Assembly (NCBI GenBank): GCA_001821135.1
Contig: MHSA01000021.1
Coordinates: 3,956 to 67,955, forward strand
DNA from: Candidatus Taylorbacteria bacterium RIFCSPLOWO2_01_FULL_48_100
Lineage (GTDB): Bacteria; Patescibacteriota; Minisyncoccia; Phycocordibacterales; UBA10002
Length of the DNA stretch: 64,000 bases
Reading direction: 5' to 3'
Below the pieces are notes generated by a model. That model searched no databases. It was not told where the DNA came from and saw only the letters and a program-made list of their open reading frames with translations. Below, in pieces: positions 5,387 to 49,699 of this stretch. Made by a program: the position numbers and the translations under genes. The stretch's first letter is position 1. Each line of letters starts with the position of its first letter.

Positions 5387-6733
5387 CTACAACATAGCCC
5401 GCAACTGTTTAATTTCTTGTTCAAGTGTGCTGTTGTGTTTTAATTCATTTTTAATTTTTTCATATGAATGAATAACAGTTGTGTGGTCTCTTCCTCCTAA
5501 TTTTTGTCCTATTAATGGATATGATACAGCACAGTCCTCTCTAAGTAGAAACATTGCTATTTGGCGCGGCCGCACCACCTCCTTGCGACGCGTCTTTTCA
5601 TAAATACTCGCTTCCTCTATTTGATAAAAATGTGAAATTACCCGAAGAACATCTTTTACTGAAGTCGTTTTTTTAGGCTTCTCGTTCGCCTTAACAATTT
5701 GTTTTACTTCCACAAGAGTAAGTTCCCTGTTTTTTAGTTGAGAATTACACACAACAGAATTCAGAAGCCCTTCTATTTCACGGATATTCCCTTCAACAAT
5801 ACCTGCAAGATACTGTGCTGTTTCGTTGGAAATTGGAAATCCAGCAATTTTCGCCTTTGATTGTAAAATAGCAATACGGGACTCAAAGTCGGGTGCAGGC
5901 AAGTCCACCACCATACCTGACGCAAAGCGCGACTTCAAGCGGTCTTGAATGTCGGAAATGAAGTTGGGGTGCACGTCAGCGGAAAAGATAATCTGCTTGT
6001 TGTTTTCATATAGCGTGTTGAAGAGGTGGAATAATTCTTCTTGTGTTTTTGTTTTTCCGGAAATGAATTGTATGTCGTCCATAATAAACACATCATAGAC
6101 ACGGTATTTTTCCTTAAATTGGTTGATGCTGGTGTTCTGCATCGCGTTTGTAAACTCAATTTGGAATTTTTCCGATGTGATGTAGAAAATCTTCTTACGC
6201 GGCTCTGATTTATAAAAGTAATTTCCAACCGCTTGAATGAGGTGGGTTTTTCCGTGCCCGGTATTGCCATAGAAAAAAAGAGGGTTGTACGCCGACGGCT
6301 TTTTGATGATTGCCTGCGCCGCGGCGTGCGCGAGCTCATTAAAGGGGCCAACGACAAAGGATTCAAAGGTGTAGCGCGGATTGAGGTTATTCTCTTTGTT
6401 GATATAGTGCTCTTTAAGAGGAAGTTCTGCGTTATTTTGGTTTGTATTGAGCCACACCTGAGGTTGAGCCGCTATTTTTTTCTGTTCGTCTTTGGAAATT
6501 ACATATTCAATAGAGCGCGTGCCTTCCGAAAGCGCGCGCAAGGAATGAAGAATCATTTTATGATATTTGTCCGACAGCCAATCGCGCACGAACGCGTTTG
6601 GTACAGCAAGGTACGCAATCCCCTCTTCCATTCGTGAGAGGGCTGTGTCTTTAAACCATGTCTGAAAGTTTGCCTTTGATACCGTTCCGCCGATTTCAAC
6701 CAGCGCGCTGTCCCATAATTGTTTTGGATTCAT
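5387..6733 (-). CDS. dnaA: Chromosomal replication initiator DnaA
   Basis: 448 aa. AAA+ Walker A GNTGHGKTHL. C-terminal DnaA DNA-binding domain pattern. Divergent from rpmH-rnpA. Confidence 0.9.
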   Translation of the reverse strand: MNPKQLWDSALVEIGGTVSKANFQTWFKDTALSRMEEGIAYLAVPNAFVRDWLSDKYHKMILHSLRALSEGTRSIEYVISKDEQKKIAAQPQVWLNTNQNNAELPLKEHYINKENNLNPRYTFESFVVGPFNELAHAAAQAIIKKPSAYNPLFFYGNTGHGKTHLIQAVGNYFYKSEPRKKIFYITSEKFQIEFTNAMQNTSINQFKEKYRVYDVFIMDDIQFISGKTKTQEELFHLFNTLYENNKQIIFSADVHPNFISDIQDRLKSRFASGMVVDLPAPDFESRIAILQSKAKIAGFPISNETAQYLAGIVEGNIREIEGLLNSVVCNSQLKNRELTLVEVKQIVKANEKPKKTTSVKDVLRVISHFYQIEEASIYEKTRRKEVVRPRQIAMFLLREDCAVSYPLIGQKLGGRDHTTVIHSYEKIKNELKHNSTLEQEIKQLRAML

Positions 6734-8522: not shown

Positions 8523-8652
8523 CTCTCGCCCTTATCCTAAGGGGGAGTACCACGAGCGGAGCGAGGGGGAGGGGGTGGTTTTTCTGTGGGAACAGAAGCA
8601 CCCCTCCGTCTCCCTACGGGAGACACCTCCCCTTATGTTAAGGGCAGGAGGT
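8523..8652 (+). repeat. GC-rich structured intergenic repeat, family R1 copy 1 (CTCGCCCTTATCCTAAGGGGGAGTACC…GAGGGGGAGGGGGT…ACCCCTCCGTCTCCCTACGGGAGACACCTCCCCTTA…GGCAGGAGG)
   Basis: About 130 bp and near-identical to copies at 21289-21410 and 26250-26376, and to a reverse-orientation copy at 36355-36510. It contains several internal hairpins (CCCTTA/TAAGGG, GGGGGAGGGGG/CCCCTCC, TCTCCC/GGGAGA). It lies between the convergent 3' ends of jag and the 8658-9875 gene. Confidence 0.7.
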
Positions 8653-9881: not shown

Positions 9882-10955
9882 TTATGGAGGACAATTACCG
9901 CTTTCAAGCCCCCTCCCTTTCACATAAAGCGTTTTAGAATTAGGACATCGGATATAAAATGCAGTTTCTGTTTCTATATTAGTCATACGCTGTCTTAAAT
10001 CAATAGCTCGGTCATTTAATCCAGCCGTTTCCAGTTTTTCCGCGTCCTTTTCTACCTTGGCGCGCGCCGCCAGTAGCATTTGTGATACCGCCGCATTATT
10101 TGCCCCTACATCTTTATTGGCGATATTATAATCAACGCGCGGCAATCCACCCTGCCATGTCCAGTTGGTTGGATTTAATCTATCAAGCAACCCCGTCGGA
10201 ACTAAACAAGTCCCTCCTCCTTTCAAACATTTGTTAATCTGCGCTCGCATATCGGTAGACAACCAATCAACCGCCCCCTCGTAACTTCTCACCACCGTTT
10301 CTTTCGTTTTGATTTCTTGGAGTTTTGGCCTTAATGTATCAAGTTCTTCTTCCAATGCTGATAAGTTTGCGATTTCCTCAGGAGTAAAGTCGCCTTCACG
10401 AAATTTTCTATCCAGTTCTTTAACTCTTACATCAACAGCATCCCCTGCTATTTTTAGATCTTTCGCCTTCGTTGAAATGTTTTGAGCCCTCTGCAACGCT
10501 TCATCAAGAAACTTTCCATATGTATCCTCCACGCTTTGTATCCTCGTCTTTGTTACCGGATTGAGTTTTCCAATCGCGAGACCGATATCTACCAGACGCG
10601 GGTTGATGGTGTAAAGGAGCACATACGACGCGAGCACGGTCGCGAGCCCCCACACGACATTCATAATAACTCCCTTACTTTCGCTCTTGCCGCTCACTGC
10701 CTCCGTCGTCATATACTGGAACCCGCCCCACACGAGCATCAGCACGGCGAGAACTCCTGCGGCCCCTATTCCGAGTTTGTAAATCCCTGTGAGATATGTA
10801 GGGAGTGAAGTAGTTGTCTTTCCCAAATCAGTGATGTTTGGAAGTGGCGCAAGCGGTACATAATCAGTTTGCGCGAGCAACAGCGCAGGAATTACTAGCG
10901 TGGCAAGTGCGCATATTTCCACAAACATCGTTATTTTATACTGTACTTTTTTCAT
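9882..10955 (-). CDS. Hypothetical protein with a VirB2/TrbC pilin-like N-terminal region (signal peptide + two hydrophobic helices) and a long coiled-coil C-terminal domain
   Basis: Signal peptide (…ALLLAQTDYVPLAPLP), then two TM-like helices (GIYKLGIGAAGVLAVLMLVWGGF / VVWGLATVLASYVLLYTINP), then about 220 aa of coiled-coil-like sequence. The pilin-like topology is my inference only. It is the last gene of the T4SS-like locus. Confidence 0.3.
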   Translation of the reverse strand: MKKVQYKITMFVEICALATLVIPALLLAQTDYVPLAPLPNITDLGKTTTSLPTYLTGIYKLGIGAAGVLAVLMLVWGGFQYMTTEAVSGKSESKGVIMNVVWGLATVLASYVLLYTINPRLVDIGLAIGKLNPVTKTRIQSVEDTYGKFLDEALQRAQNISTKAKDLKIAGDAVDVRVKELDRKFREGDFTPEEIANLSALEEELDTLRPKLQEIKTKETVVRSYEGAVDWLSTDMRAQINKCLKGGGTCLVPTGLLDRLNPTNWTWQGGLPRVDYNIANKDVGANNAAVSQMLLAARAKVEKDAEKLETAGLNDRAIDLRQRMTNIETETAFYIRCPNSKTLYVKGRGLESGNCPP

Positions 10956-10965
10956 GTTGCTTTCA

Positions 10966-11075
10966 TACTAATATACTAATGCATACCAATCTACCAATGA
11001 CTACCAATAAAATTCGTTTCTTATTCGTAGACATTCGTATCATTAGTATAATTCGCAGATTAGTATTTATTAGTA
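10966..11075. repeat. TACGAAT-nonamer palindromic element (family R2), full copy
   Basis: Left arm of tandem ~9-nt units (catactaatatactaatgcataccaatctaccaatgactaccaataaa), a short spacer, then an inverted right arm (…attcgtagacattcgtatcattagtataattcgcagattagtatttattagtatc). It lies directly upstream of the ATG of 9882-10955 (start at 10955). Confidence 0.75.
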
Positions 11076-12035
11076 TCAAAATGTAATCATTGTTCTCGCT
11101 TCTCCAAACTGAAACATCGCTTTTGGATTGGTTACCTCAACACTAATATCCGCGCTTCCCGCAGCGCCTTCTTTTCTAAACACAACGCTCTCATCATTTG
11201 GCGAGCCGACCTTTAGATTATTGAGCGTCCAGTTGTATTGTAGAAGTGGCGCGTCTGCTTTGTTGAAAAAGAATGGTTGTGCCGCAACGCGGATTTCCGG
11301 TGCCGTAAGCGTAGTGCCCCTCGCAAGCGCTTTATTCCACAATATGCCGTAGAGCGGATTGTCTTCGTACAAAATAACTTGCGGCGCAGTTGCTTCGGCG
11401 ACTATACGCGCTTCCGCCACCGCGCTTCCGTCAGGCGATTCCACTTCCACCGTTATTTCCGTCGGGCGAAACGGCACTTTTGCATAAAAGGTGAAAATAT
11501 CTCTTCCAACCCCCGACGAACCCTCCGGCACACGGTCGGCAATGCGCCAAGTGTATTTAAGCATTTTCGGGTTGGCGCGCGCGCTCGCGGCACCTGCAAA
11601 AAACGGAACCGCGGCAATCCGCGTCGCGCCGTGGTAAGAAAAGAGCGTCTTGCCTAGGTAAAAAGGCGGAGCGGTGCCGTCCGATTCTGCAACAAGAAGC
11701 ACCGACGCCGGCGAGAGGTTTATTGTTTTTTCTATCATCTCTTCTAATTCAGACATCCTCACCGTCAGCACTGTTTTAGAGCCGAGCTTGCCGGTGCGAA
11801 ACGACGCGCTCGTTTCCCCCTTCCCCTTCCGCACCGATACGCCATTGATTAGCCATTGTATTTCCACATCTGCCGCGCTCCCGCCGCTTAAAATGTGAAG
11901 CGACGCTTGCACGAGCGTATTCGGTCCCGGCTTTTCCGGCGAGAGGTTTATCAGTATCGCGTCAGCGGAAGGCGGCAGCGCGGCAAAAGCAGGTGTCGCA
12001 ACGAGGAATATGAAGATGTATAGTATTTTTTTCAT
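11076..12035 (-). CDS. Hypothetical secreted protein (signal peptide, beta-rich)
   Basis: Signal peptide MKKILYIFIFLVATPAFAALP. No recognised family. Stop/start overlap (ATGA) with the upstream small membrane-protein gene. Confidence 0.4.
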   Translation of the reverse strand: MKKILYIFIFLVATPAFAALPPSADAILINLSPEKPGPNTLVQASLHILSGGSAADVEIQWLINGVSVRKGKGETSASFRTGKLGSKTVLTVRMSELEEMIEKTINLSPASVLLVAESDGTAPPFYLGKTLFSYHGATRIAAVPFFAGAASARANPKMLKYTWRIADRVPEGSSGVGRDIFTFYAKVPFRPTEITVEVESPDGSAVAEARIVAEATAPQVILYEDNPLYGILWNKALARGTTLTAPEIRVAAQPFFFNKADAPLLQYNWTLNNLKVGSPNDESVVFRKEGAAGSADISVEVTNPKAMFQFGEARTMITF

Positions 12036-12376
12036 ACCTTTTTCGGCATTTTTATGCCGGTTTTATCTTCCAATTGTACCACAAGCACCGTGAGCGCGAC
12101 CCCAACCGTTATACAAGGCAATATATTGAGCACTGGAATCGCCTCAATAATCGCAGAGCCGAAAAACGAAGCCGCGCGCTTAGGGTTCACAAACCCTACT
12201 CCGCGGCTCAAAAACCAAAATCCAAATGTGAGGTACGCAATAATTGACACAAGCACGGCGAGCACTTGTCCCAATAAAGGGATAAGATTTAACCCAGCAT
12301 TTACGGCATCAAACAAAACAGCAACCGCAACCATAACAACGCCGGTTGTTTTATCAATTCTAATTTCTTGTTTCAT
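12032..12376 (-). CDS. Small three-TM membrane protein; start moved to MKQEIRID because the upstream Met lies inside the R2 repeat
   Basis: About 114 aa and hydrophobic. Part of the T4SS-like locus. Function unknown. Confidence 0.35.
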   Translation of the reverse strand: MKQEIRIDKTTGVVMVAVAVLFDAVNAGLNLIPLLGQVLAVLVSIIAYLTFGFWFLSRGVGFVNPKRAASFFGSAIIEAIPVLNILPCITVGVALTVLVVQLEDKTGIKMPKKV

Positions 12377-12383
12377 AGAAATT

Positions 12384-12490
12384 ATATATACCAATATACA
12401 AATGTATACCAATCTACAAATGGATACGAATAGGAACAGGAAATATTAGTAGTCATTCGTATAATTCGTATCATTGGTATATTGGTATTA
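12384..12490. repeat. R2 palindromic element, full copy; its right terminus (…ATTGGTATTA) supplies the TAA stop of the VirB4-like gene
   Basis: ataccaatatacaaatgtataccaatctacaaatggatacgaata…attcgtataattcgtatcattggtatattggtatta. The stop codon of 12488-14305 sits at 12488-12490, inside the repeat terminus. Confidence 0.75.
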
Positions 12491-14305
12491 CGCGCTTGCG
12501 CGCAATTCTTCTTTTGCGCGTTTAATCGCTAAGAGTTGCGACGGGTCGGAAGTGATAATCTGGTCTTCTGTGTAGGATGCAACAATTTTAATCGCGACAT
12601 GTTTCAGCCCGACGAAAAAGAGTCCCTCCCCCACATCCGATTCAAGCAAAAGATATTTTTCCTCATCGGTCAGGTTGAATACTTTTTGTATGCGGTCTAT
12701 CACTGCGGGTGATTGCTTCAGAAGCATTTGGATAGACGAGTTCGTTACAATCGGCAATCCATACGGAGAGGAAAGGAAATCGTCCACATCTTGCGTAATG
12801 GTCGCAACACCTAAAAAGTATTTGCGTCCGCGCTTGGCGACAGAAAGAAGAAATGAGGCGGTATCTTCCGAGCGCATCATCCACCACGCCTCATCCACGA
12901 CGAGGAGCCGTTTTTTGAGATTTCGGCGCACGGCGTTCCAGATGTGGTGTGTAACGATGTAAGTTGCGACCGATTTTAGTTCGTCTTCCATATCCCGAAG
13001 GGAAAATACGACAAGATTGCCGTTTATGGACACATTGGATGGGCGATTAATAAAGTTTGCCCAAGTGCCTTTTGTGTATTTGGTAAGCCGCACACGGATG
13101 CTCTCTGTCCCCTCCATTCCCGCAAGCACCATTTCAAAATCAGACAGAAGCGGCGGCTCGGTTTTCCCGAAGTCAGAATCAGGCGTAATGTCTTTAAGCG
13201 CGTAGGTCTCGGTAATCGCTCGGTCCACTAGTGCGTCTTCTTCCGGTGTAAGCCCGCCCAGCATTATGCGAAAAAGCCCGACGAGCGAGATAATGTGCGA
13301 GCGCAAAATGTCCGCAGGCGATTCATCCTCGCGCGGCAAAGGCAAGTCAAACGGGTTGATGTGGTGTTCGGAAGTGAGTGAGATGGAAAAGAACTTGCCG
13401 CCGACCGATTCCGCGAGAAACTCATACTCTTTTTCCGGGTCAATCACAATCACTTCCGTATCAAACATCAGTGTTCGTAAGATTTCCAATTTCATCATAT
13501 AGGACTTGCCGGCGCCCGACTTCGCAAAAACGACCGAGTTGTAGTTTTCCAGCGAGAAGCGGTCAAACAAAACAAGCGAAGAATTATGCCTATTTATGCC
13601 GTACAAGATTCCTTTGTCGGAAGTTAAGTCAAACGAAATGAATGGGAAAATTGAAGAAAGCGGTCCAGAATTAAGTTTAGAATGTACCAGAAGCTCGTCC
13701 GATGCTGTAGGCGCAACCGAACGAAACCCCTCCGCCTGCTGAAAGAGTGCCGGCTTCATATACACGAGTTTCGCTTCCATAATGGACTTCACTTCGCTCT
13801 CAATTTTTTCTAATTCTTCTTCTGTGTCTGCGTACAGCGTAATATATAATCCAACATCAAAAATCTTTTCTTGCGCCTGTTGCAGTTCATCGCGAAGCTT
13901 TTCCAAGTCCTGATACGCGGTCTCAAGCATCGGGTCGCGCACAAACCCTTTTTCTTCGCGCGTGTGGATTTGGCTCTGCACCTCCGCGACTTTTTTCTGG
14001 AACTGCTTCAGCACTTTTCCCGTTTCAACAGGATGTACGAAAATAGAGACATCAAACACTTTATCAAGATTTATAATCGGCGAAAACCAGCCGGCGGTTA
14101 GGAAGCGCGGATAGGAGATGACGAAATAGGTGCGAGCGATTTTCTCGCCCATATTGAGCGTCTTCGGCGTGATTTTGAGAGCCGCGGGCGCGAGCACATC
14201 GCGCAGTTCCAAAACCCCCGACTGGTAAATCTGTTCGGGCAGTATCGGCGTAATCTCGCTCTCGCCACTTTGTTTTTTCTTTTTGAATAGGTCTAGTATG
14301 TTCAT
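12488..14305 (-). CDS. VirB4/TraC/CagE-family type IV secretion ATPase
   Basis: 605 aa. Walker A FAKSGAGKSYMMK and Walker B LLVVDEAWWM (the DEAW motif characteristic of VirB4-like ATPases). Domain order is typical of VirB4/TrsE/PrgJ. Confidence 0.75.
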   Translation of the reverse strand: MNILDLFKKKKQSGESEITPILPEQIYQSGVLELRDVLAPAALKITPKTLNMGEKIARTYFVISYPRFLTAGWFSPIINLDKVFDVSIFVHPVETGKVLKQFQKKVAEVQSQIHTREEKGFVRDPMLETAYQDLEKLRDELQQAQEKIFDVGLYITLYADTEEELEKIESEVKSIMEAKLVYMKPALFQQAEGFRSVAPTASDELLVHSKLNSGPLSSIFPFISFDLTSDKGILYGINRHNSSLVLFDRFSLENYNSVVFAKSGAGKSYMMKLEILRTLMFDTEVIVIDPEKEYEFLAESVGGKFFSISLTSEHHINPFDLPLPREDESPADILRSHIISLVGLFRIMLGGLTPEEDALVDRAITETYALKDITPDSDFGKTEPPLLSDFEMVLAGMEGTESIRVRLTKYTKGTWANFINRPSNVSINGNLVVFSLRDMEDELKSVATYIVTHHIWNAVRRNLKKRLLVVDEAWWMMRSEDTASFLLSVAKRGRKYFLGVATITQDVDDFLSSPYGLPIVTNSSIQMLLKQSPAVIDRIQKVFNLTDEEKYLLLESDVGEGLFFVGLKHVAIKIVASYTEDQIITSDPSQLLAIKRAKEELRASA

Positions 14306-14309
14306 AAAA

Positions 14310-14421
14310 TATCTATACCAATATACTAATGATACGAATTATACGAATGACTACGAATAAAAATTCTTTGTTTACATTGGTAATCATTAGTAGATTGGTA
14401 TGCATTCGTATATTGGTATTA
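14310..14421. repeat. R2 palindromic element, full copy; its terminus supplies the TAA stop of the 14419-15045 gene
   Basis: taccaatatactaatgatacgaattatacgaatgactacgaataaa | aattctttgtttac | attggtaatcattagtagattggtatgcattcgtatattggtatta. It lies directly upstream of the VirB4-like start at 14305. Confidence 0.8.
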
Positions 14422-15045
14422 AGCAACTGCCGCGTGCTGTTCCTCGCCAGGGTTAAATAATTTATAAAACAATTCTATTTCCTCGTCTGTGCCGAGTCGC
14501 GCGGTGCGGAGACCGCACCTCGTCAGCCCCTGCTCTACGATAGAAATGCGTTGTTCAATCTGAGTTCTATTTTCGTTGAAGTCGCTCGTTGCCGCGGCGG
14601 GCGTTTGGTTTTTACGCCTGAGCCCTATCGGCAGCCCACCTTTGAGTTTCACTGGTGTAGGCGAATACGGCACGACTATGAAAAATGTTTTGGACATAAT
14701 AGCCGTGCTTTCCGTAAACGAGCGCACAAACTCTATATACTCGCGCGTCTGAATTTTTAGAAGTTCCGTCTGTTGCGCCTTCACGCGCGTTTCAAGAAGC
14801 GCGATGTAGGGTCTGACATCAAACCGCCGCGAGTGAATAACGATTTGTGCAGAAAAGTCCAGCGTGTTCAAGAAGTTTTGGAATTGCAAAAGAATCGCCT
14901 CTTGATTGTCTTCTGATTTCAGCGCGAAGTTGACGGAAGACACCATAAGAACAGCGCGCAGCCCACCATCGCGTAGGACGAGTATGCCGTCGCGAATTTC
15001 CGAAATCGGCACAAATTCCTGAGTTGGTTTTGTTTTTGGAGGCAT
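14419..15045 (-). CDS. Hypothetical soluble protein; its N-terminal region resembles the N-terminus of the adjacent VirB4-like protein
   Basis: 208 aa with no TM. The block PISEIRDGILVLRDGGLRAVLMVSSVNFALK parallels PEQIYQSGVLELRDVLAPAALKITPK in the VirB4-like ORF. It may be a VirB4 N-domain-like accessory protein. I cannot name a family. Confidence 0.4.
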   Translation of the reverse strand: MPPKTKPTQEFVPISEIRDGILVLRDGGLRAVLMVSSVNFALKSEDNQEAILLQFQNFLNTLDFSAQIVIHSRRFDVRPYIALLETRVKAQQTELLKIQTREYIEFVRSFTESTAIMSKTFFIVVPYSPTPVKLKGGLPIGLRRKNQTPAAATSDFNENRTQIEQRISIVEQGLTRCGLRTARLGTDEEIELFYKLFNPGEEQHAAVA

Positions 15046-15048
15046 AAA

Positions 15049-15100
15049 GTAAATATACGAATATACAAATTATACGAATGATACGAATGTCTACGAATAA
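15049..15100. repeat. R2 element, left arm only
   Basis: atatacgaatatacaaattatacgaatgatacgaatgtctacgaataaaa. It lies immediately upstream of the 14419-15045 start. The matching right arm is at 15493-15540, with the GxxExxY gene between the two arms. Confidence 0.7.
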
Positions 15101-15107
15101 AACTATA

Positions 15108-15524
15108 TCATAATTTTATCTGTCGTATTCGCTCAATCCGCACGATTCTTCGTGGTTTAAGTAGTTTTTCACGAAAATTCACCAACAAACCAAGCCGCAA
15201 CTCAGTTTGTTGTAAGTAATTTTGGATTTGCCTAAAATCCTCTCTTAATAATAGCCGTTTTGCTTTTAATTCCAAAACGACCTGATTCTCTATAAGAAAA
15301 TCAAGGATGTTACCTCCGGTTCCGATGGCTAATTCTCTTTTGTAGTTTATATTTTTTTCTTTAAGATATTTCTCTATTGCATCAGCGTACTGTTTTTCTC
15401 TTGCATACTCGCCGAGTTCATTATGTGCAGCAAAACATATGCCAGTGAGTATGTATGAAAGTTCCGGAAACAGTAGTACTGGCTTTTTGTTCCTATTAGT
15501 AGACATTAGTAGATTAGTATTCAT
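15108..15524 (-). CDS. GxxExxY-family protein (the four-helix-bundle family typical of 23S rRNA intervening sequences)
   Basis: The sequence …PELSYILTGICFAAHNELGEYAREKQYADAIEKYLKEKNINYKRELAIGTGGNILDFLIENQVVLELKAKRLL…FRQIQNYLQQTELRLGLLVNFREKLLKPRRIV matches the GxxExxY / TIGR04256-like pattern well. The annotated N-terminus (MNTNLLMSTN…) is a translated R2 repeat, so the true start is uncertain. Confidence 0.65.
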   Translation of the reverse strand: MNTNLLMSTNRNKKPVLLFPELSYILTGICFAAHNELGEYAREKQYADAIEKYLKEKNINYKRELAIGTGGNILDFLIENQVVLELKAKRLLLREDFRQIQNYLQQTELRLGLLVNFREKLLKPRRIVRIERIRQIKL

Positions 15525-15540
15525 TCGTATATTGGTATTA
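15493..15540. repeat. R2 element, right arm only
   Basis: ctattagtagacattagtagattagtattcattcgtatattggtatta. Together with 15049-15100 it forms one palindrome interrupted by the GxxExxY gene. Confidence 0.7.
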
Positions 15541-15945
15541 CTATTTTCTGGTGGTGGTATGCGAAATGTCCAGCGTCCATGTTAAGTCCTTCAACTTTCC
15601 TTCCGTCAATTTTGGAATAGTCGGCGGGTTCGTGTTTTGCGCAGGACTTTTCGCGGATGGCGCGCGCGGCACTTTACGCCATAAGTACAATTTTTCCGAC
15701 AAGTAATAGCGGATGGCGGATTCAAGCACAAAAACAAACGGCTTGTTGTTTATTTTCCAAAACGCGAGCGCGAGCGCGAGCGCGGCGACTGGCGCAATAA
15801 TGAGAATTGCGACGATAAACGGCAAGAAGCGGTAGAGAATAAAAGAAAGCCCCGCTCCGCCGACAAGGTAAATGAACTGCTTGACGGTGAGCGGTCCAAA
15901 CAGGCGGTCTTCTATGTCTATAAATTGCGGGGTTTGATAACGCAT
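15541..15945 (-). CDS. Small two-TM membrane protein, possibly VirB3/PrgI-like
   Basis: 134 aa. A hydrophobic hairpin (…LVGGAGLSFILYRFLPFIVAILIIAPVAALALALAFWKI) followed by a hydrophilic tail. It lies adjacent to the VirB4-like gene, as VirB3/PrgI genes usually do. Assignment rests on topology and context only. Confidence 0.3.
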   Translation of the reverse strand: MRYQTPQFIDIEDRLFGPLTVKQFIYLVGGAGLSFILYRFLPFIVAILIIAPVAALALALAFWKINNKPFVFVLESAIRYYLSEKLYLWRKVPRAPSAKSPAQNTNPPTIPKLTEGKLKDLTWTLDISHTTTRK

Positions 15946-15952
15946 ATGCGTT

Positions 15953-16062
15953 TTATACCAATATACTAATGTTACTAATGATACGAATGTCTACGAATAA
16001 AAAATCTCTGTTTCCATTTGTAGTCATTGGTAGATTGGTATGCATTCGTATATTGGTATTAT
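15953..16062. repeat. R2 palindromic element, full copy; supplies the TAA stop of the 16059-17138 ORF
   Basis: ataccaatatactaatgttactaatgatacgaatgtctacgaataaaa | aatctctgtttcc | atttgtagtcattggtagattggtatgcattcgtatattggtatta. Confidence 0.8.
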
Positions 16063-17138
16063 TCTATTGGCTCACGATAAGGGTCTTTTGGATAATTACT
16101 CTGTGTTGATGTTGATTGTGGCGAATAATTTGGCGCGGCAATCGGCAAGTTTTTCGGCGGTTCGGTGGTTGGTGCAAATCGGTACTTACCTTCTGTTTTT
16201 TGTTCCTGTTCTTTCCCCGTCTTATTTGTAGCCATTTGTAGATTAGTATTCATTCGTATATTGGTATTCATATTTCTCAAAATCTCCCGCACTGGCCGCA
16301 AAATCTCCATATTCACCACTTGTCCAACCGCCATCGCGCGGTCGCGCGGTAGGCGCAAGCGGCGCGTGAGGTTGTCTACAAAATTCACCGGCTGTGTTAG
16401 CCCCAACATAACAAGCCCCGCCTCGCTCACCAATTCTCCCGTTTCTTCCACATTTAACCCGAACTTTTTCGCCACTCCTTCAAGACGAGATAAAAACCCA
16501 ACGCTCTCCAGCGACTGCTTCACTTCAATCGGCGTTTTGCGGAACGCGTCGTTTATTCGGTTGTCGTCGTACGCAGTGCCACGTTTGATATCGGAGAGAA
16601 GAGTTTGTAGCGTATAGCGTGTAGCGTGTAACGTAGATTCGGGGGGAGTGGGTAATTCTTTGCGGATGAGAACGGGGCGAGGAGGGGCTGGGGGTAAGTT
16701 GGTAAGTTTGGAAGTTTGTAAGTTGGGTGGCGTAGTAGTTGGTTTTGTTTCTGTTTTATTCGTAGACATTCGTAGATTAGTATTCATTCGTATATTGGTA
16801 TTAATATTGGTATTAAAAATCTCTTTTTCAACTTCCCCCGCAATCGCCCGCGCCTGCTCGGGCGGCAATAATAATTCACTCGCGAATTCGTTTTCTGCTT
16901 GTTTTGTGTCAATGATCTGTAGAAGTATTGCGCCTACTATGTAATTAAACTTTACTCGCTGTTCTTTTGATAGATTATGTTTTTCTGCAACACGAACAGT
17001 CGCCGCTGTTGCTTCTGGCGAAGTAATATAATCCTGCGTATCTTGCGGTAATTTTTTTAACGCCCTTATTTTTTCTTCGTTTGTAAATTTCATATTTTTA
17101 TTATACCCAGAGCGTTGCATTGACTGGATTTGAAACAT
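16059..17138 (-). CDS. Uninterrupted 359-codon frame that runs in-frame through two R2 half-elements; either one protein with repeat-encoded NTNIRMNTNL(R/Q)M segments or 2-3 small genes separated by repeats
   Basis: The translation contains NTNINTNIRMNTNLRMSTNK and NMNTNIRMNTNLQMATNK exactly where R2 half-copies lie (16757-16815 and 16233-16270). The first 13 codons overlap the VirB6-like gene, so the real start is probably MKFTNEEK… near 17093. Confidence 0.3.
   Translation of the reverse strand: MFQIQSMQRSGYNKNMKFTNEEKIRALKKLPQDTQDYITSPEATAATVRVAEKHNLSKEQRVKFNYIVGAILLQIIDTKQAENEFASELLLPPEQARAIAGEVEKEIFNTNINTNIRMNTNLRMSTNKTETKPTTTPPNLQTSKLTNLPPAPPRPVLIRKELPTPPESTLHATRYTLQTLLSDIKRGTAYDDNRINDAFRKTPIEVKQSLESVGFLSRLEGVAKKFGLNVEETGELVSEAGLVMLGLTQPVNFVDNLTRRLRLPRDRAMAVGQVVNMEILRPVREILRNMNTNIRMNTNLQMATNKTGKEQEQKTEGKYRFAPTTEPPKNLPIAAPNYSPQSTSTQSNYPKDPYREPIE
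16233..16270. repeat. R2 element, right-arm half copy embedded in a coding frame
   Basis: catttgtagattagtattcattcgtatattggtattca. Confidence 0.6.
16757..16815. repeat. R2 element, right-arm half copy embedded in a coding frame
   Basis: ttattcgtagacattcgtagattagtattcattcgtatattggtattaatattggtatta. Confidence 0.6.
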
Positions 17139-19023
17139 AAGCCAACTGAGCAGCTTGCTCGGGATATGCCACAGCCCCAGTTATTTCGTTCAATATCGCT
17201 GTTATTTCATTCGGCATAAGATTTCCATTTTCCATAAGATCGCGAAGATGTTGCGGTCGCATCCTTCTAATTATATCTGGATTGACGCGTGCTTCATGAG
17301 AAAGTTCTCGCGCTTGGTTTGGACGAAGTATTGCAACGCGCCTATCCATTTCTGCGTGTGTTATTGGTGGTGCACCTGCCACTGGTGGTGTCGCAATCGC
17401 TTCAATTTCAGTAAGGCGTTGTTCGTTTTGTGTGTCTCGTTCCACATTTCTCCGCGCCTCACGAACTTTGTCTTGTTCTTCCGGTGTCAGACGGTTGTAA
17501 AGACCTGTTATCTGTTCTGGTGAAAGAGTACCGGTTCTTTCTAACGCCACCCTATCTCTTGCCGAAAGTTTCTCATACGCTTTCCTGCGTTGGCCTTCTG
17601 GAAGGTTTGCGAGGTATTGCGCCTGCATGGCTGGGTTATTGCGGAACCCTTTCATTGTTTTTTCTACTTCTTCATCGCCCACTGTGCCGAAAGTACCCTT
17701 CTCCTGCATTTCTTTGTAACTTTTCCCACCGATTTTCATTGACTGCAAGCGGTCGGCGGTGCGAAGAGCCATGCGTGCAAGCGGGTTGGTAGACGCTTTT
17801 AGCGCATCGCTGTTTGTCGCAGCGCGCGCAAACCCTCCAATCGTGCGCGCCGCGACGCCCCCCGCAAGTCCGGTAACCGCTCCCTGCCCCCATTTGCGGA
17901 GACCTTGCCCCCAGCCCATTACCATAGAGCCGCCGTATGCTCCCATATTTTTTGCGATAAGGAGTGTCGCGGCAATGGCGACAATGAGAATCAAATAGTT
18001 TATAACAATCCCGATATTCCCCGACGATTCGGATGTCATCAGCGCGGCAAATGACGCTTCGTTGTTTTGGATTTTCAAGAGTTCCGCCATACCGCCGCTC
18101 TGAATCGCATTGGCGACCGCGTAGTTAAGCGCCATATATACTGGGGCGAAAAATGTATAAGAAAAAAGCGCGTGCCACCATTTATCCGTATGTGATTTCA
18201 TTCCGGGAAAAACCCACGCCACAAACGCGAGCGGCGCGAGAATCATCACAAACATCAGCACCACAGCGCGGACGATAAACAGCACTGCGGCGGCGAAGAA
18301 GATGAACGCAGTAACAAGGAAGAATACCGAGCCGAGAATAGTCGCAAGCCCCACTTTCATAAAATTGTCGGCAAACCCGCCCGCCGCCGCCATAGCATCT
18401 GTCGTTGTTTGCCCGCCTCTCGCATCCATCACGCTCTGGAGTCGCAAGCCCTCCATATATATATCGGAGAGTCCCGCTTTTTCAGTTGTTTCTACGCCGT
18501 TGACGATGAGGTTAGGCCGCATTGCGTCGTAGAAGTGAAGCGTCGCAATGTTGCCTGCGTCAATAATCGCTTTGGTGATAAAGAGCGAGAAGTTTATCAG
18601 AAGCGCCATTATGATTACATTCAGAAGCAGTTTCTTTATTTCCCCTCCACCAAGCCCGAGAATAGTCCGTATGCCTATCCAAAGTAAAATAAAAATGAAG
18701 CACAGGTTTGCAATGTCGCGAAATACCGTCCAGCCGACAGACACAATCGGCACTTTCTCTATCAATTCGCCAACTCTGCCGATGCTGAGTTCCACTGAGG
18801 CATTCAGTATTGCGCCGGATATGTTCAACACTTTGGAAACAATCGTAAGAACGATGTTGCCTAAGTCGGCGAAGACGCTCGTAATCACATCATGCCAGCC
18901 CATCGCGCCGATAATTTTACCCGCGACATACCCAACGGCACCTTCCTGCGCAAACGCAACTCCCGCGCCGATCGGCGCCAGTATCATTCCAGCAAGCACT
19001 ATGATGATAAGCAGTTTTTTCAT
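17101..19023 (-). CDS. VirB6/TrbL-like polytopic membrane protein with a long hydrophilic C-terminal domain
   Basis: 640 aa. Signal peptide, at least six TM helices in the first ~400 aa, and a Gly-rich segment (GWGQGLRKWGQGAVTGLAGG). The C-terminus is charged and alpha-helical. It sits in the same operon as the VirB4-like gene. Family call is by topology and context. Confidence 0.4.
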   Translation of the reverse strand: MKKLLIIIVLAGMILAPIGAGVAFAQEGAVGYVAGKIIGAMGWHDVITSVFADLGNIVLTIVSKVLNISGAILNASVELSIGRVGELIEKVPIVSVGWTVFRDIANLCFIFILLWIGIRTILGLGGGEIKKLLLNVIIMALLINFSLFITKAIIDAGNIATLHFYDAMRPNLIVNGVETTEKAGLSDIYMEGLRLQSVMDARGGQTTTDAMAAAGGFADNFMKVGLATILGSVFFLVTAFIFFAAAVLFIVRAVVLMFVMILAPLAFVAWVFPGMKSHTDKWWHALFSYTFFAPVYMALNYAVANAIQSGGMAELLKIQNNEASFAALMTSESSGNIGIVINYLILIVAIAATLLIAKNMGAYGGSMVMGWGQGLRKWGQGAVTGLAGGVAARTIGGFARAATNSDALKASTNPLARMALRTADRLQSMKIGGKSYKEMQEKGTFGTVGDEEVEKTMKGFRNNPAMQAQYLANLPEGQRRKAYEKLSARDRVALERTGTLSPEQITGLYNRLTPEEQDKVREARRNVERDTQNEQRLTEIEAIATPPVAGAPPITHAEMDRRVAILRPNQARELSHEARVNPDIIRRMRPQHLRDLMENGNLMPNEITAILNEITGAVAYPEQAAQLAYVSNPVNATLWV

Positions 19024-21288: not shown

Positions 21289-21410
21289 TCTCGCCCTTAT
21301 CATAAGGGGGAGTACCCGAGCGAAGCGAGGGGGAGGGGGTCTAACACAGAAACAAACAACCCCTCCGCCTCGCGGACTCGGCACCTCCACTTAGGAAAAG
21401 GGCAGGAGGT
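21289..21410 (+). repeat. R1 GC-rich structured repeat, copy 2
   Basis: tctcgcccttatcataagggggagtacccgagcgaagcgagggggagggggt…cccctccgcctcgcggactcggcacctccacttaggaaaagggcaggagg. Located between the 21416-22402 gene's 3' end and the 19030-21195 gene's start. Confidence 0.7.
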
Positions 21411-23391: not shown

Positions 23392-23450
23392 GTAGATAAA
23401 CATACGAATATACGAATGATACGAATCTGCGAATGGCTACGAATAATACA
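23391..23450. repeat. R2 element, left-arm half copy (overlaps the last codons of rsmA)
   Basis: agataaacatacgaatatacgaatgatacgaatctgcgaatggctacgaataatac. Confidence 0.6.
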
Positions 23451-24219
23451 AAGACAAACACCCCCATTGTGCAAGTGAAACATCCTCTGCGCGCGCGTTT
23501 TTTTCTACGCCGCATTTTTCTAGCATATCGGGAGTTATGCCTAAATTTGACGCGAGCAATTTGCGCGGATGCGCAAATCCTTTCTTGAGAACCGCAAAGA
23601 ATCTTTCTTCCGCAAAGTCAGCAAAAAACTTCTTTGATATACCCGATATTTTAAGAATCGCCGAATCCACCTTTGGCGTGGGCGAAAACGAGCCCGCTTT
23701 TACTGTGCCGATATATTTTGGTGTTCCGTAGCATTTTACGCTTATGGAAAGAATGGATTCTTTGTTTACCCCGCGTAGCCTTGGCGAAATGGGACCGGCA
23801 ACAATCCGTTTCGCAACCTCTTTTTGTAAAAGGAGAATCATCATGCTCGGTTGCATTTCGCTTTGCAGAAATTTTCGGAGAAATTGTCCGGTAATATAAT
23901 AAGGGATATTGGCGACTATTTTATAAGGAAACGGCTCGATTTTTTCAAGATCTAAAATATCGCAATGAATAAGTTCTAACTTTCCAGACGCAATTTCCTT
24001 CGCAAATCTTTTTTGCAAGACAGGAATCAGGTGCGAGTCCTTTTCTACCGCAACGACACGCCCGGCGCGTTCAAGAAGGAGCGCGGTCAAAACACCTTCA
24101 CCTGGTCCAACTTCCAGCACGGTGTCGGTCGGAACAAGCTCTGCCGCCGCGACTATTTTTTCTAACGCGCCGCGGTTTCGTAAGAAATGCTGGCCCAATG
24201 ATTTTTTACTACGAATCAT
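23437..24219 (-). CDS. rsmA: 16S rRNA (adenine1518/1519-N6)-dimethyltransferase
   Basis: Starts MIRSKKSLGQHFLRNRGALEKIV…VLEVGPGEGVLT, the canonical KsgA N-terminus and SAM-binding motif. The track's upstream extension (MLTIFIRIYLYISMHSYIGI) is a translated R2 repeat, so the start was moved to 24219. Confidence 0.85.
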   Translation of the reverse strand: MIRSKKSLGQHFLRNRGALEKIVAAAELVPTDTVLEVGPGEGVLTALLLERAGRVVAVEKDSHLIPVLQKRFAKEIASGKLELIHCDILDLEKIEPFPYKIVANIPYYITGQFLRKFLQSEMQPSMMILLLQKEVAKRIVAGPISPRLRGVNKESILSISVKCYGTPKYIGTVKAGSFSPTPKVDSAILKISGISKKFFADFAEERFFAVLKKGFAHPRKLLASNLGITPDMLEKCGVEKNARAEDVSLAQWGCLSLYYS

Positions 24220-24325
24220 AATACCAATATACGAATGCATACTAATATACAAATAGATACGAATAAAGATAGTGAGCATTCGTAGTCATTCGTATACATT
24301 CGTACCATTTGTAGATTGGTATATA
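24220..24325. repeat. R2 palindromic element, full copy; directly upstream of the rsmA start and encoding the last ~14 aa and stop of uvrD
   Basis: aataccaatatacgaatgcatactaatatacaaatagatacgaataaagatagtgagcattcgtagtcattcgtatacattcgtaccatttgtagattggtatatatc. The uvrD C-terminus …DIYQSTNGTNVYE* is read from the right arm. Confidence 0.75.
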
Positions 24326-26249: not shown

Positions 26250-26376
26250 CCTCTCGCCCTTATCCTAAGGGGGAGTACCCGAGCGAAGCGAGGGGGAGGG
26301 GGTCGTTCCCGCAAAACCAAATCCACCCCTCCGTCTCCCTACGGGAGACACCTCCCCTTAAGTTAATGGCAGGAGG
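26250..26376 (+). repeat. R1 GC-rich structured repeat, copy 3
   Basis: cctctcgcccttatcctaagggggagtacccgagcgaagcgagggggagggggtcgttcccgcaaaaccaaatccacccctccgtctccctacgggagacacctccccttaagttaatggcaggagg. Confidence 0.7.
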
Positions 26377-26384
26377 AAAAAATA

Positions 26385-28370
26385 CTACCTCCCACCAAAA
26401 AACGCCTTCACAAACCCCCACACATCTGATTCTGGAATGCCTGCGCCGGCAAGTTGTTGAGAAATACCGATGAATGCTCCGGCTTTATACACAATTTCTT
26501 TGGAAACAGATGATGAACAGTTGTCTGTTTCGGTTCCAATACAGAGGCGGAAGTAGTATGAGCCGACGCCAGCAGTCCATGTGTGGGAGACGGTCTGTGT
26601 TCCGCCTGCGGCAAGATTAGCAATCGGGCCGACATTTGCGCTGAAGTCATACCAATTTGCGTTGTTAGATGAGTATTGGAATCGCGCTGGAACTGAGGAA
26701 GTGAGCGCGCCTCCACTGTTTGATACAGTTGAGGTAAGTGTCAGTTGTCCCGCGTAAAGCTTCCCTTCTGTCGCATCTTCTCCTGATATGCTAGGCGTGC
26801 TTGCGTTTAGTTTTGGTGAAGCGGTAGTTGTTGTCGGTGTTGTTGTGGCGGTTGTTGTGGCGGTTGTTGTGGCGGTTGTTGTGGCGGTTTTTGTTGGAGC
26901 TGTTGTTGTTGGTTGCGTAACATTCACCGTTACTGTGTCGGATGCCGTTGCGCTACCGCCATCTTGTTTACAGGTAACTGCATATGTTTTAGAAACAGTC
27001 GCAGTAGTGCGAATCGCCCCAGTCGCTTCCCCAGTTACATCTCCATTACACTGTTCAATCTTTCCAGTGGTTGTATATGAAAGCGCAATCGCTGTTCCAG
27101 CCGCTACTGTTATTGGGCCGTCGCTTGGAATGCTGTTGTTTGTGTATGCTTTGAGGTCTACGGTAATGGGGCTTGCTGGGGCGGTGATGGTGAAGTAGGA
27201 GTCGCTTTCGTCGAAAGCGGCATAAGTGTTTTTCTGCATATTGGAGCAATAGAGGTCAGAATTTGATTGCGGACAAAGTCCGATTTGTAATTTGTAATTG
27301 CCAGTTCTTTGTGCTTCCGGTATTCTCCACTGATAATTTGTTATCCCGGGCGAGAATATCTCCTGACCTAGACCGACAGAAAAATATCCGTCTGGGCCGA
27401 GTAAATTAAGTACAAATTTGTATCCTGCTGATGCCCCTCTCCAAGAAATTGTCTGTGTGGAACCTGTCTGCCAACTCTCTCCCCCATTCGGACTCAACAC
27501 AGTAATACTCGGCTGCGCGGAGGTGGCGGGGGCAGATGAATATATCGTGAATCTACCACCACTGATAGGAAGCGACCCACTTACAGAAGCGGATGTCCTA
27601 ATGGCAACAACTCTAACTGAAAATTCCTTACCATCATATTGACTTATATTAGGGGCCATAACTACACCAAAAGTGAAAACTTGTCCTTCATCAGGGATAA
27701 AACCGGAATAAAGCGCCACCGCTTGATTATTGGTATTGAACGGAATAGGGACAATTGGACCAGATGGTATTGGTGCCACTGTGGTGGAGTAGTTGGAATT
27801 TTCTGGGAAGATAACTACACCAGCAAATGCGTTACGAGGTGCTGTACCAGTTAACTCTAGAACAAAACCTTCAATTTTTTGTAATGGCTTACCACTACTT
27901 TTCAAGGTGATATGGGTTGTCCTAACTGCTGTTCCACTCGCAATGTTTTCCATAGTAGAATTCATTGCTGGAGAAACCTGAATCTCTGTTTGTGTCACCG
28001 GAATCGGCGCGGTAACCGTTGCCTGTCCCGACACATTTACCACCACACTATCATCATCGCGCTCGCCTTCTTTGTTGATGCACGCGACTTTAATAACTGC
28101 GGAACGGCTAATGCGCCCGGCGACTGTGCCCGACAATTTAATATCATTTTTAGACCAATTGCCTCGGCATCGGCTTGCGCCTTCTGATATCCAACTCACG
28201 ACAATGCGACTTCCTTTCTCTACAGTAACAGGCCCATCCTGCCCGTTCACTTTCATATCTACCGACACCGTCTCAAATATATTCTCAAACCCGACATCCT
28301 GCGCCTTTGCGACTGCAACAAACGCAAACACTGCAATACCGACTGCGCCGACATAAAGGAGTTTCCTCAT
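26385..28370 (-). CDS. Large secreted/cell-surface protein with a Thr/Ala-rich linker encoded by a 12-bp tandem repeat
   Basis: Signal peptide MRKLLYVGAVGIAVFAFVAVAKA. Internal TTTAPTKTATTTATTTATTTATTTPTTTT linker encoded by (GTTGTTGTGGCG)x4 at about 26839-26886. The N-terminal ~90-aa domain is paralogous to the C-terminus of the fragmented gene at 31654-32973. Confidence 0.5.
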   Translation of the reverse strand: MRKLLYVGAVGIAVFAFVAVAKAQDVGFENIFETVSVDMKVNGQDGPVTVEKGSRIVVSWISEGASRCRGNWSKNDIKLSGTVAGRISRSAVIKVACINKEGERDDDSVVVNVSGQATVTAPIPVTQTEIQVSPAMNSTMENIASGTAVRTTHITLKSSGKPLQKIEGFVLELTGTAPRNAFAGVVIFPENSNYSTTVAPIPSGPIVPIPFNTNNQAVALYSGFIPDEGQVFTFGVVMAPNISQYDGKEFSVRVVAIRTSASVSGSLPISGGRFTIYSSAPATSAQPSITVLSPNGGESWQTGSTQTISWRGASAGYKFVLNLLGPDGYFSVGLGQEIFSPGITNYQWRIPEAQRTGNYKLQIGLCPQSNSDLYCSNMQKNTYAAFDESDSYFTITAPASPITVDLKAYTNNSIPSDGPITVAAGTAIALSYTTTGKIEQCNGDVTGEATGAIRTTATVSKTYAVTCKQDGGSATASDTVTVNVTQPTTTAPTKTATTTATTTATTTATTTPTTTTASPKLNASTPSISGEDATEGKLYAGQLTLTSTVSNSGGALTSSVPARFQYSSNNANWYDFSANVGPIANLAAGGTQTVSHTWTAGVGSYYFRLCIGTETDNCSSSVSKEIVYKAGAFIGISQQLAGAGIPESDVWGFVKAFFGGR

Positions 28371-35113: not shown

Positions 35114-35217
35114 AATACTAATATACGAATTATACTAATGATACGAATGACTACTAATGCTTCGTAATCTTTATTCGTATCCATTGGTAGATTGGTATTC
35201 ATTTGTATATTGGTATT
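35114..35217. repeat. R2 palindromic element, full copy; upstream of the comM start, and supplies the TAA stop of the dksA-like gene
   Basis: aatactaatatacgaattatactaatgatacgaatgactactaatgcttcgtaatctttattcgtatccattggtagattggtattcatttgtatattggtattta. Confidence 0.75.
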
Positions 35218-40392: not shown

Positions 40393-40590
40393 TAAAGGAC
40401 ATTTCATAAAGGACATTTGCGAATGTCCTTTATGAATAATCAAATGTCCATTAGAAATGTCCTTTACGAATGTCCTTTATAACCACTTGAATGTCCTTTA
40501 GAAGTGTTTCCTTGTGCATTTTTAGGTGGTTTATCCACAGTTCGTGTCCTTTACACAAATGTCCTTTATAAATTAGAATGTCCTTTAGAC
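40393..40590. repeat. Iteron-like array of ~10 AATGTCCTTTA / TAAAGGACATT motifs (family R3) upstream of rpsO; includes one perfect DnaA-box 9-mer TTATCCACA at 40530-40538
   Basis: aaaggacatttcataaaggacatttgcgaatgtcctttatgaataatcaaatgtccattagaaatgtcctttacgaatgtcctttataaccacttgaatgtcctttag…gtgtcctttacacaaatgtcctttataaattagaatgtcctttag. Confidence 0.7.
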
Positions 40591-42769: not shown

Positions 42770-42895
42770 AACGGACATTTGGTTTTATGTCAGTGTCCGA
42801 GAGGAAATGTTGAGAAATACGGATATTTTGTAAAAGACACTTCTTTTCTTAATAAAGGACATTTATGCCGAGAGGAAAAACAGGACATTTGCGAG
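42770..42895. repeat. R3 motif cluster (3 units) spanning the yraN start
   Basis: acggacattt…aataaaggacatttATGccgagaggaaaaacaggacatttgcg. Confidence 0.5.
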
Positions 42896-49550: not shown

Positions 49551-49557
49551 AGGTGAA

Positions 49558-49605
49558 CATACCAATATACGAATGATACGAATCTACAAATAGATACGAA
49601 TGATT
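49558..49605. repeat. R2 element, left-arm copy immediately upstream of the HU start
   Basis: acaccaatatacgaatgatacgaatctacaaatagatacgaatgattt. Confidence 0.6.
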
Positions 49606-49699
49606 TCGTAATTCAGTAGGAAAATAAATAATAATAAAGTATTAAAACGACTCACCTATTATCCCCCATTGGCGTTAGAATGCAAGGGTTTTTTGGGAA

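Follow-up and report, generated by a model that had tools for sequence, protein, structure and literature searches.

The stretch of DNA analysed here, called the window, comprises 64,000 nucleotides of contig MHSA01000021.1 and belongs to a genome bin of Candidatus Taylorbacteria, an ultrasmall groundwater bacterium of the Patescibacteria or candidate phyla radiation (CPR). Its minus strand carries a type IV secretion system (T4SS) operon, and this operon holds, between a PrgI/VirB3-like and a TrsD/TraC-like gene, a small gene for a nuclease of the GxxExxY (PDDEXK_3) family. This gene, the cargo in what follows, is enclosed by two inverted arms of a palindrome which is repeated elsewhere in the window without a gene. 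The complete cargo-bearing copy spans 15043-15547. Its parts and the two adjoining genes are listed below in window coordinates; L-numbers denote comparison loci from other genomes, about 140 in all.

14419-15045, minus strand: TrsD/TraC-like T4SS gene (NF041427 TrsD, E 2.7e-4; VirB4 N-terminal-like matches)
15054-15100: arm 3′ of the cargo gene, five TACNAAT heptamers on the plus strand, 8-10 nt apart, at 15056-15098; family D1, 86% to the reference
15101-15107: junction of stop codon and 3′ arm, on the coding strand TGA-TATAGTTTT-ATTCGTA, conserved in the window, L001 and L004
15108-15524, minus strand: GxxExxY/PDDEXK_3 nuclease gene, the cargo, matched by the PF13366 and TIGR04256 profiles
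15494-15541: arm 5′ of the cargo gene, five ATTNGTA heptamers on the plus strand at 15495-15537; family D3, 79% to the reference
15541-15945, minus strand: PrgI/VirB3-like T4SS gene (PF12666 PrgI, E 1.8e-9)

On the coding strand of the cargo gene the arm at 15494-15541 reads as TACNAAT, and it contains both candidate ATG starts of the gene (15524 and 15506). The ATG of trsD (15043-15045) is placed exactly 10 nt from the outermost heptamer of the element, and the TAG stop of prgI (15541-15543) 3 nt off its last heptamer. The arms are 393 nt apart, and the best inverted-repeat alignment bracketing the open reading frame (ORF) scored 20.5, compared with 8.5 ± 1.2 and a maximum of 13 at 300 random places of the same spacing away from palindromes. 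When the arms are joined (15043-15107 plus 15480-15547) they are 86% identical to the gene-less palindrome at 14303-14425 and 87% identical to that at 15943-16066 over about 121 nt, the match including the loop-proximal bases on both sides of the cargo; to the palindromes at 10950-11085 and 12376-12495 the identity is 76-79%. An earlier interpretation made from the letters of the window alone, in the following the sequence-only reading, had described a GxxExxY gene between the arms of a repeated (R2-type) palindrome. This observation is confirmed, its coordinates were right to within a few bases, and the alignments at 76-87% identity establish that the arms are homologous to the palindrome family.

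The cargo protein has 138 amino acids (aa) when translated from the first ATG (15524) and 132 aa from the ATG at 15506, the latter form being the one annotated at NCBI (P0001, 100% identical, locus tag A3C08_03615). Its assignment to the GxxExxY family was upheld by profile searches, which gave PF13366 PDDEXK_3 as the sole Pfam match (E 8.9e-20, 71.6 bits, cut-off 22) and TIGR04256 GxxExxY (E 2.6e-18, 66.5 bits, cut-off 35). The protein has the fold and the catalytic residues of a PD-(D/E)XK nuclease (helix Glu, Asp, Glu-x-Lys), and across 30 homologs this catalytic set (E43, D75 and E85-x-K87) does not vary. The arm encodes residues 1-12, which are predicted to be disordered. The best structural matches in a fold comparison were the DNA nucleases Cas4, Dna2 and BpuSI; a PDB sequence search with the family profile gave nothing at E ≤ 1, and the fold comparison alone is informative here. 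The PADLOC defence models matched neither the GxxExxY protein nor a protein of the 23S_rRNA_IVP family (IVP, see below), the sole PHROG match of the GxxExxY protein is a family of unknown function, and a survey of the PD-(D/E)XK superfamily lists GxxExxY/PDDEXK_3 as "Unknown" (PMC3424549). The window has a second small ORF of PD-(D/E)XK type at 42865-43281 on the plus strand (138 aa), located among four tRNA genes. By eye only it resembles a YraN/UPF0102-type endonuclease; tblastn did not identify it as a GxxExxY homolog, and heptamer arms were not seen around it.

Counting the heptamer TACNAAT and its complement ATTNGTA uncovered seven full palindromes in the window, each consisting of five heptamers followed by five inverted ones (+++++-----). 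Their heptamer spans are listed first, followed by four of them singly:

10966-11075, 12389-12487, 14316-14418, 15956-16058, 24210-24321, 35116-35215 and 58057-58204: heptamer spans of the seven full palindromes
10950-11085: cargo-less palindrome of the same family
12376-12495: cargo-less palindrome downstream of VirB4, the VirB4 stop codon abutting its last heptamer
14303-14425: cargo-less palindrome with 5 + 5 heptamers between TrsD and VirB4, RNA fold of -32 to -35 kcal/mol
15943-16066: cargo-less palindrome between a 359-aa ORF and PrgI, family D4

Within the arms the heptamers are spaced 8-10 nt apart, and in the empty copies the two arms are separated by about 15 nt. The empty copies have predicted RNA folds of -26 to -43 kcal/mol, and those at 14303-14425 and 15943-16066 are 91% identical to each other (14314-14421 versus 15954-16061). 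The palindromes occupy gaps between co-directional genes with a constant geometry: the stop codon of the upstream gene is 0-3 nt from the last heptamer, often as a TAA overlapping the terminal TAATAC, and the downstream ATG follows exactly 10 nt past the first heptamer in 6 of 8 copies, which therefore leaves no room for a Shine-Dalgarno sequence. The ends read TA-ATACCAAT...ATTGGTAT-TA. There are also solo half-arms of 3-5 TACNAAT with no detectable inverted partner at 23393-23447, 49550-49604 and 49697-49751; one of the three is found between convergent genes beside ksgA/rsmA, and two are 147 nt apart downstream of a tRNA gene.

The sequence-only reading had suggested comparing empty with filled loci, and such a comparison was possible, as the same operon spacers are found in four states: with a filled copy, with a partly deleted one, with an empty one, and never inserted. 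In L001, with VirB4 96% and TrsD 97% identical to the window, the GxxExxY gene is present with both arms at the same place (77-81% aa identity), and L085 has the same arrangement. The palindrome at 14303-14425 is absent from L001, where the trsD-virB4 spacer measures 7 nt (L001 7080-7095); the difference reflects either the recent acquisition of a cargo-less copy or its precise loss. In L086-L090, the closest genomes without the gene (VirB4 91%, TrsD 85% identical), only TAT (3 nt) separates the prgI stop TAA from the trsD ATG and there are no palindromes; their operons contain at most two stray heptamers in 5-7.6 kb, compared with dozens in L001 and the window. L004 combines three states in adjacent spacers: a full GxxExxY gene with arms in the trsD-virB4 spacer, a copy about 98% identical to it in the PrgI|TrsD spacer that has lost about 340 internal nt, and an empty palindrome with a loop that can still be aligned to the TGATATA 3′ end of the gene. 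The right arm of the full element in L004 additionally bears a small-hairpin-like nested insertion of about 35 nt (CCCCAGTAGTAGAGCGGGGCTCACTACAGGGTAAA) at 6470-6505.

The PrgI|TrsD spacer is also filled by a TACNAAT-armed GxxExxY gene in L006, L026, L048, L141, L142 and L143, all of them distant from the window (TrsD 44-61% identical), the copy in L048 being degenerate. Including L001 and L085, the spacer is thus filled in at least eight loci besides the window, most of them distant, whereas 54 T4SS loci retrieved via TrsD have no GxxExxY element there. The interruption of the T4SS operon by a GxxExxY gene, which the sequence-only reading had pointed out, is real, but it is not a one-off event. 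The element is therefore an insertion whose distribution is patchy and for which intact, decaying and absent states are seen. Homing-type genes likewise occupy one conserved site sporadically, and their loci can be intact, degenerate or empty. In L118 (2860-3510) the PrgI|TrsD spacer, 633 nt long, is occupied by a toxin gene of the PemK/MazF type (PF02452, E 1.6e-8), placed on the opposite strand.

The recurrence of the gene in exactly this spacer, a feature that the window shares with at least eight further loci, most of them distant, could also mean that it is a genuine accessory of Patescibacteria T4SS, for example a nuclease processing the transported DNA, with the palindromes as operon punctuation. 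Purifying selection on the gene and the correlation of its divergence with that of VirB4, both described below, would fit such a role. However, the gene is absent from 54 of the 55 TrsD-retrieved T4SS loci, including lineages as close as the carriers, the copy in L048 is degenerate, one copy in L004 is deleted, and the full gene of L004 sits in a different spacer. The same spacers of other operons carry IVP or PemK toxin genes, close homologs are found in other places, one between ruvA and fpg and others in frame within RecG and an RseP-like gene, and a survey of CPR T4SS components mentions no nuclease. We therefore consider an accessory role improbable.

Whether the arms go with the gene in general was analysed with 80 loci of GxxExxY relatives, one genome per species, of which 79 were analysable. 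In about 65 of the 79, which come from many phyla, a significant inverted repeat encloses the gene, i.e., one scoring above the maximum of 60 control positions of the same spacing in the same locus, with scores of 15-39 compared with a local null mean of about 8.5. Inward-pointing arrays of three or more [AC]CN[AG]AT motifs flank the gene on both sides at 49 of the 79 loci and occur at 0.2% of the null places; arrays in the opposite orientation were found at 2 of the 79 loci, and for the 23S_rRNA_IVP elements the count was 0 of 8. Consistent flanking by inverted arms, which had been anticipated for GxxExxY genes elsewhere, is thus borne out by both measures. Arms built as arrays of short motifs are also present in Chloroflexi, Geobacteraceae, Omnitrophota, Cloacimonadota and Flavobacteriales, and the motifs are specific to lineage and element (TACNGAT, GCGAAA, CACGAAT, CACGGAT, CAGGAT, CACAGAT, CGCAGAC and others), the majority conforming to [AC]CN[AG]AT.

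On the same contig, IVP and GxxExxY elements have different motifs (L141-L143, L043, L056), and even two GxxExxY paralogs on one contig carry a separate motif each (contigs compared: L043, L056 and L006). With three motifs in a single contig of L043, we rejected the possibility that the motif is set by the genome and not by the element. Because the class of motif tracks the cargo within single contigs, the arms belong to the cargo and not to the host genome, and this is the main reason to suspect an interaction between protein and arms.

These data bear directly on the suggestion that the palindrome is a neutral carrier which was split by its cargo. In a more explicit form, the palindromes would be pre-existing intergenic hairpins of the host with a role in, for instance, the processing or stability of mRNA, one of their loops would have been invaded by a free-standing homing-type nuclease gene, and the arms would be unrelated to the protein. 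Such a history would be in line with the excess of empty copies over the single filled one (7 full and 5 half copies in 64 kb), and the constant geometry towards the neighbouring genes, with a stop abutting one end and an ATG 10 nt off the other, fits a host role; the loop-side sequences are moreover kept on both sides of the cargo. On the other hand, the motif tracks the cargo and not the genome, the genomes without the gene at this site are also without palindromes there, and L004 displays a series from full to deleted to empty. Landing of the gene in a host hairpin thus appears unlikely, and the palindrome was probably not a neutral carrier. The motif going with the cargo and the deletion series of L004 instead make the empty palindromes look like derivatives of the cargo-bearing element.

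Complete GxxExxY units were found in frame inside otherwise intact genes at three loci, with the arms translated and the insertion stop-free. The half-arms in the 359-aa ORF of the window are likewise translated in frame:

L034 3761-5230: in-frame unit in an RseP-like site-2 protease
L043 3755-6313: two in-frame units and an arm-like stretch in an 852-aa membrane glycosyltransferase-like ORF
L076 2627-5293: in-frame unit in RecG, between helicase motifs II and III
Window 16059-17138, minus strand: 359-aa ORF upstream of prgI

In the 359-aa ORF the half-arms at 16224-16266 and 16758-16812, with five and six heptamers and without a partner arm, are translated as ...NTNINTNIRMNTNLRMSTNK... and ...NMNTNIRMNTNLQMATNK..., read as NTNIRMNTNL. 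The L001 ortholog has 334 aa and is only 72-75% identical. A further homolog of the nuclease, 66% identical, is located between ruvA and fpg.

The comparison of synonymous sites is informative for the window-L001 pair only and is saturated beyond it. For this pair the nonsynonymous divergence (dN) of the cargo is about 0.16 and the ratio to the synonymous divergence (dN/dS) about 0.1; judged from these sequences, the nuclease evolves under purifying selection. Of the four-fold sites of the cargo (window 15108-15506 versus L001 6001-6399), 22/34 (65%) differ, compared with 15/57 and 27/95 (26-28%) in the genes on either side, all of which are syntenic, so that the silent divergence of the cargo is about 2.5 times that of its flanks. 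The excess could stem from a local increase in mutation rate or from exchange of the gene for a related copy; we regard both as possibilities.

An element of the same architecture is formed by genes for IVP proteins, which are four-helix bundles (Avd-like):

L100 3087-3443
L121 4167-4530
L136 3090-3460
L141 2670-3032
L142 2555-2845
L143 2674-3039
L043 2192-2482, minus strand
L056 about 2547-2910

In L100, L121 and L136 these genes lie between inverted heptamer arrays in T4SS spacers (PF05635, E 1e-21 to 4.5e-40), and in L141-L143 the IVP gene lies upstream of prgI, in the spacer that in the window holds the empty palindrome 15943-16066. Several of the heptamer-flanked IVP genes are thus found in spacers of the same T4SS operon. 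The heptamers flanking the eight genes are GTGACTA, TGCTAGT, TGGTAAC (ten copies), GCCTAAA, ATGGAAA, GCTTTTA, CTTGGAG and TATCCTG. Palindromes of other heptamers occur in the same T4SS spacers as well: GTCATCN (L110), TGCTAGT (L121) and CCCTAAA (L127).

IVP genes are known as the ORFs of intervening sequences (IVS) in rRNA genes: the documented IVS ORF is 23S_rRNA_IVP/S23p (PMC4990558). In the 23S IVS of Coxiella, tandem GACAGAT heptamers precede the ORF and a stem is formed by 28-bp terminal inverted repeats, where RNase III cuts; the hypotheses on the origin of IVSs are still a "remnant of transposition" and a "mobile element whose ORF serves mobility" (PMC4990558). The sequence-only reading had taken GxxExxY genes for classical cargo of such 23S rRNA insertions, and this we could not confirm, as PMC4990558 gives IVP as the ORF and a survey of CPR rRNA insertions lists 22 IVP ORFs and no PDDEXK_3 (PMC11270868). 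The window contains no rRNA and only four tRNAs, Rfam found no rRNA at the 20 closest GxxExxY loci, and a screen of 139 loci for conserved rRNA motifs, run without a positive control, found none. Compared with the IVSs of Leptospira and Coxiella burnetii (ORF S23p/23S_rRNA_IVP, PF05635), the element of the window has in common a small ORF in the loop of a stem of terminal repeats, tandem heptamers directly upstream of the ORF, tolerance in a highly expressed transcription unit and sporadic occurrence among lineages. It differs in its place in a protein-coding operon (prgI/trsD) instead of a 23S or 16S rRNA helix, in a cargo that is a PD-(D/E)XK nuclease and not the four-helix bundle S23p/23S_rRNA_IVP, and in an arm motif of a class different from those of all eight IVP elements examined.

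We therefore propose that 15043-15547 is a complete heptamer-array palindromic element, a selfish insertion module resembling IVSs and Rickettsia palindromic elements (RPEs), and we assign this package as a whole a probability of roughly 0.55. Its core, that the insertion element is self-contained and that its arms and its cargo form one unit, we hold to be very probable. The arms would mark the ends of the element itself and probably serve as recognition sites for its nuclease; the cargo-less palindromes would be non-autonomous deletion derivatives, comparable to miniature inverted-repeat transposable elements (MITEs) or to REPINs, i.e., paired repetitive extragenic palindromes (REPs). The nuclease would break arms or empty copies, and repair from a filled copy would allow the element to persist or spread. 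Action of the nuclease on the arms is a serious candidate, to which we give slightly less than even odds. In the operon transcript, pairing of the arms could form a stem of about 45 bp, mismatched at most heptamers, and loop the insert out, which would bring the prgI stop next to the trsD start; the minimum-energy RNA fold of the filled element does pair its two arms across about 400 nt. By analogy with rRNA IVSs this stem might be cut by RNase III, and the insertion might be tolerated because of such looping-out, perhaps together with RNase III cutting. Our confidence in an RNA-level effect, be it looping-out or processing by RNase III, is somewhat lower again, and we put both forward tentatively.

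Several observations weigh against this proposal or parts of it. The variable heptamer centre shows no covariation between the arms, with 28/87 pairs of the Watson-Crick type and 26.2 expected; the pairing is therefore not demonstrably selected, and a selected RNA or DNA hairpin is not claimed. Binding or cutting of the arms by the nuclease, whether as DNA or as RNA, is a prediction from sequence. IVP elements share the architecture without any nuclease, so that the nuclease is not required for it. In the AT-rich context of the palindrome ends a target-site duplication could not be established. Many genomes carry the gene without a swarm of empty copies, and near other TACNAAT-armed GxxExxY loci further heptamers are weakly enriched (0.95 versus 0.58 per kb, p = 0.04); with so weak an enrichment of extra palindromes in the flanks the REPIN-like reading stays tentative. 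Finally, among the T4SS-linked copies, the identity of GxxExxY correlates with that of VirB4 (Spearman 0.53, pairs non-independent), and because of this co-divergence descent at the PrgI|TrsD site is judged to be largely vertical, the element not visibly jumping.

The in-frame insertions could suggest that the element acts at the RNA level altogether, the nuclease being an RNA endonuclease which cuts the arm stem and excises the insert, with a ligase resealing the transcript within coding genes. The best structural matches, however, are DNA nucleases, stop-free inserts in frame are explained more simply by translation through them as in RPEs, no link to a ligase was found, and the arms do not covary. 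We regard such RNA excision as very improbable.

The insertion module proposed here can be compared with further known systems. In REPs and REPINs with their REP-associated tyrosine transposases (RAYTs), as in the window, a nuclease gene is flanked by inverted short repeats and gene-less doublets are dispersed in the same genome. The enzyme of the window, however, is of the PD-(D/E)XK and not of the HUH/Y1 (IS200/IS605-like) transposase type, each arm is an array of 3-10 tandem heptamers instead of one REP hairpin, and the gene and dispersed empty copies co-occur only weakly outside the lineage of the window. RPEs and bacterial MITEs (Correia, Nezha) are palindromic repeats of about 100-150 bp located between genes and in frame inside genes. 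Points in common with both groups are the cargo-less copies, behaving as deletion derivatives of a longer element (L004 series), and the in-frame cases in L034, L043, L076 and the 359-aa ORF. For RPEs no cognate protein is known. MITEs derive from elements with DDE transposases and show target-site duplications, whereas no transposase, and in particular no DDE transposase, accompanies the element of the window, and a duplication could not be established. Free-standing homing endonuclease genes include PD-(D/E)XK enzymes such as I-Ssp6803I, and like them the cargo is a small nuclease under purifying selection that occurs sporadically at one conserved site; unlike them it is associated with no intron or intein, it brings long repeat-array arms, and at the T4SS site it mostly co-diverges with the host operon. 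To sum up, the element works like an IVS, an RPE/MITE or a REP/RAYT system and fails a defining feature of each.

Extending the proposal beyond the window, GxxExxY nucleases with their cognate [AC]CN[AG]AT arrays could form an undescribed and widespread class of autonomous selfish elements, in which the nuclease acts on the arrays and the palindromes of Patescibacteria are non-autonomous derivatives. This class would be the sister of the ORF-bearing IVSs, with 23S_rRNA_IVP as an alternative cargo, and would colonise operon spacers and, in frame, essential genes (recG). We consider this generalisation speculative and place it clearly below the reading of the single locus. The literature searched (GxxExxY, PF13366, heptanucleotide/IVS protein, CPR palindromic elements) yielded no description of the arrays, of the rule linking cargo and motif, or of CPR palindromes. 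The GxxExxY/PDDEXK_3 family has tens of thousands of proteins in the databases and no assigned function, and the origin and mobility of rRNA IVSs and of Rickettsia-type palindromic elements are long-standing questions; if true, the generalisation would supply for palindromic insertions of the IVS and RPE types a mechanism and an origin, which have been lacking for decades. The locus of the window is an ordinary member which exposes a general rule for a large uncharacterised nuclease family. The rule itself, that the nuclease subfamily goes with the flanking repeat motif, is testable, and full, deleted, empty and never-inserted alleles of one site are available in nature. The annotation of genomes from the CPR is affected too: N-termini encoded by arms (MxTN...), operons that look interrupted, and in-frame insertions in genes for RecG, RseP-like and glycosyltransferase-like proteins are products of these elements.

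The remaining genes of the operon that were assigned are the following:

12488-14305, minus strand: VirB4 ATPase of the T4SS (PF19044, E 3.4e-24, and AAA_10)
17101-19023, minus strand: TrbL/VirB6-like gene, weak match

Orthologs of the TrsD gene of the window match PF26593 TraC-like. Separate TrsD and VirB4 genes are the normal arrangement in monoderm and CPR systems (preprint 10.1101/2025.01.22.634366), and we therefore rejected the possibility that VirB4 had been split by the palindrome at 14303-14425. Scans of 12300-17300 gave 14 sites resembling sigma-70 promoters (8.8 ± 2.8 in shuffled sequences) and 8 resembling intrinsic terminators (6.1 ± 2.9), the arms being unremarkable in both. A signature search of the window for an RNase III gene was negative, which is uninformative for a 64-kb piece.

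The window contains further repeats. A G+C-rich family of about 130 nt with internal complementarity, unrelated to the heptamer palindromes, has three copies, at 8524-8651, 21289-21409 and 26252-26376 (TCTCGCCCTTATCCTAAGGGGGAG...CCTCCCCTTA...AAGGGCAGGAGG). A 12-nt tandem repeat, GTTGTTGTGGCG, is present in about eight copies at 26815-26910 inside a 661-aa ORF (26385-28370). A short repeat family, TGTCCTTTA...AATGTCC, is found at 40408-40503 and 41973-42005, in the intergenic stretch near 40.4 kb.

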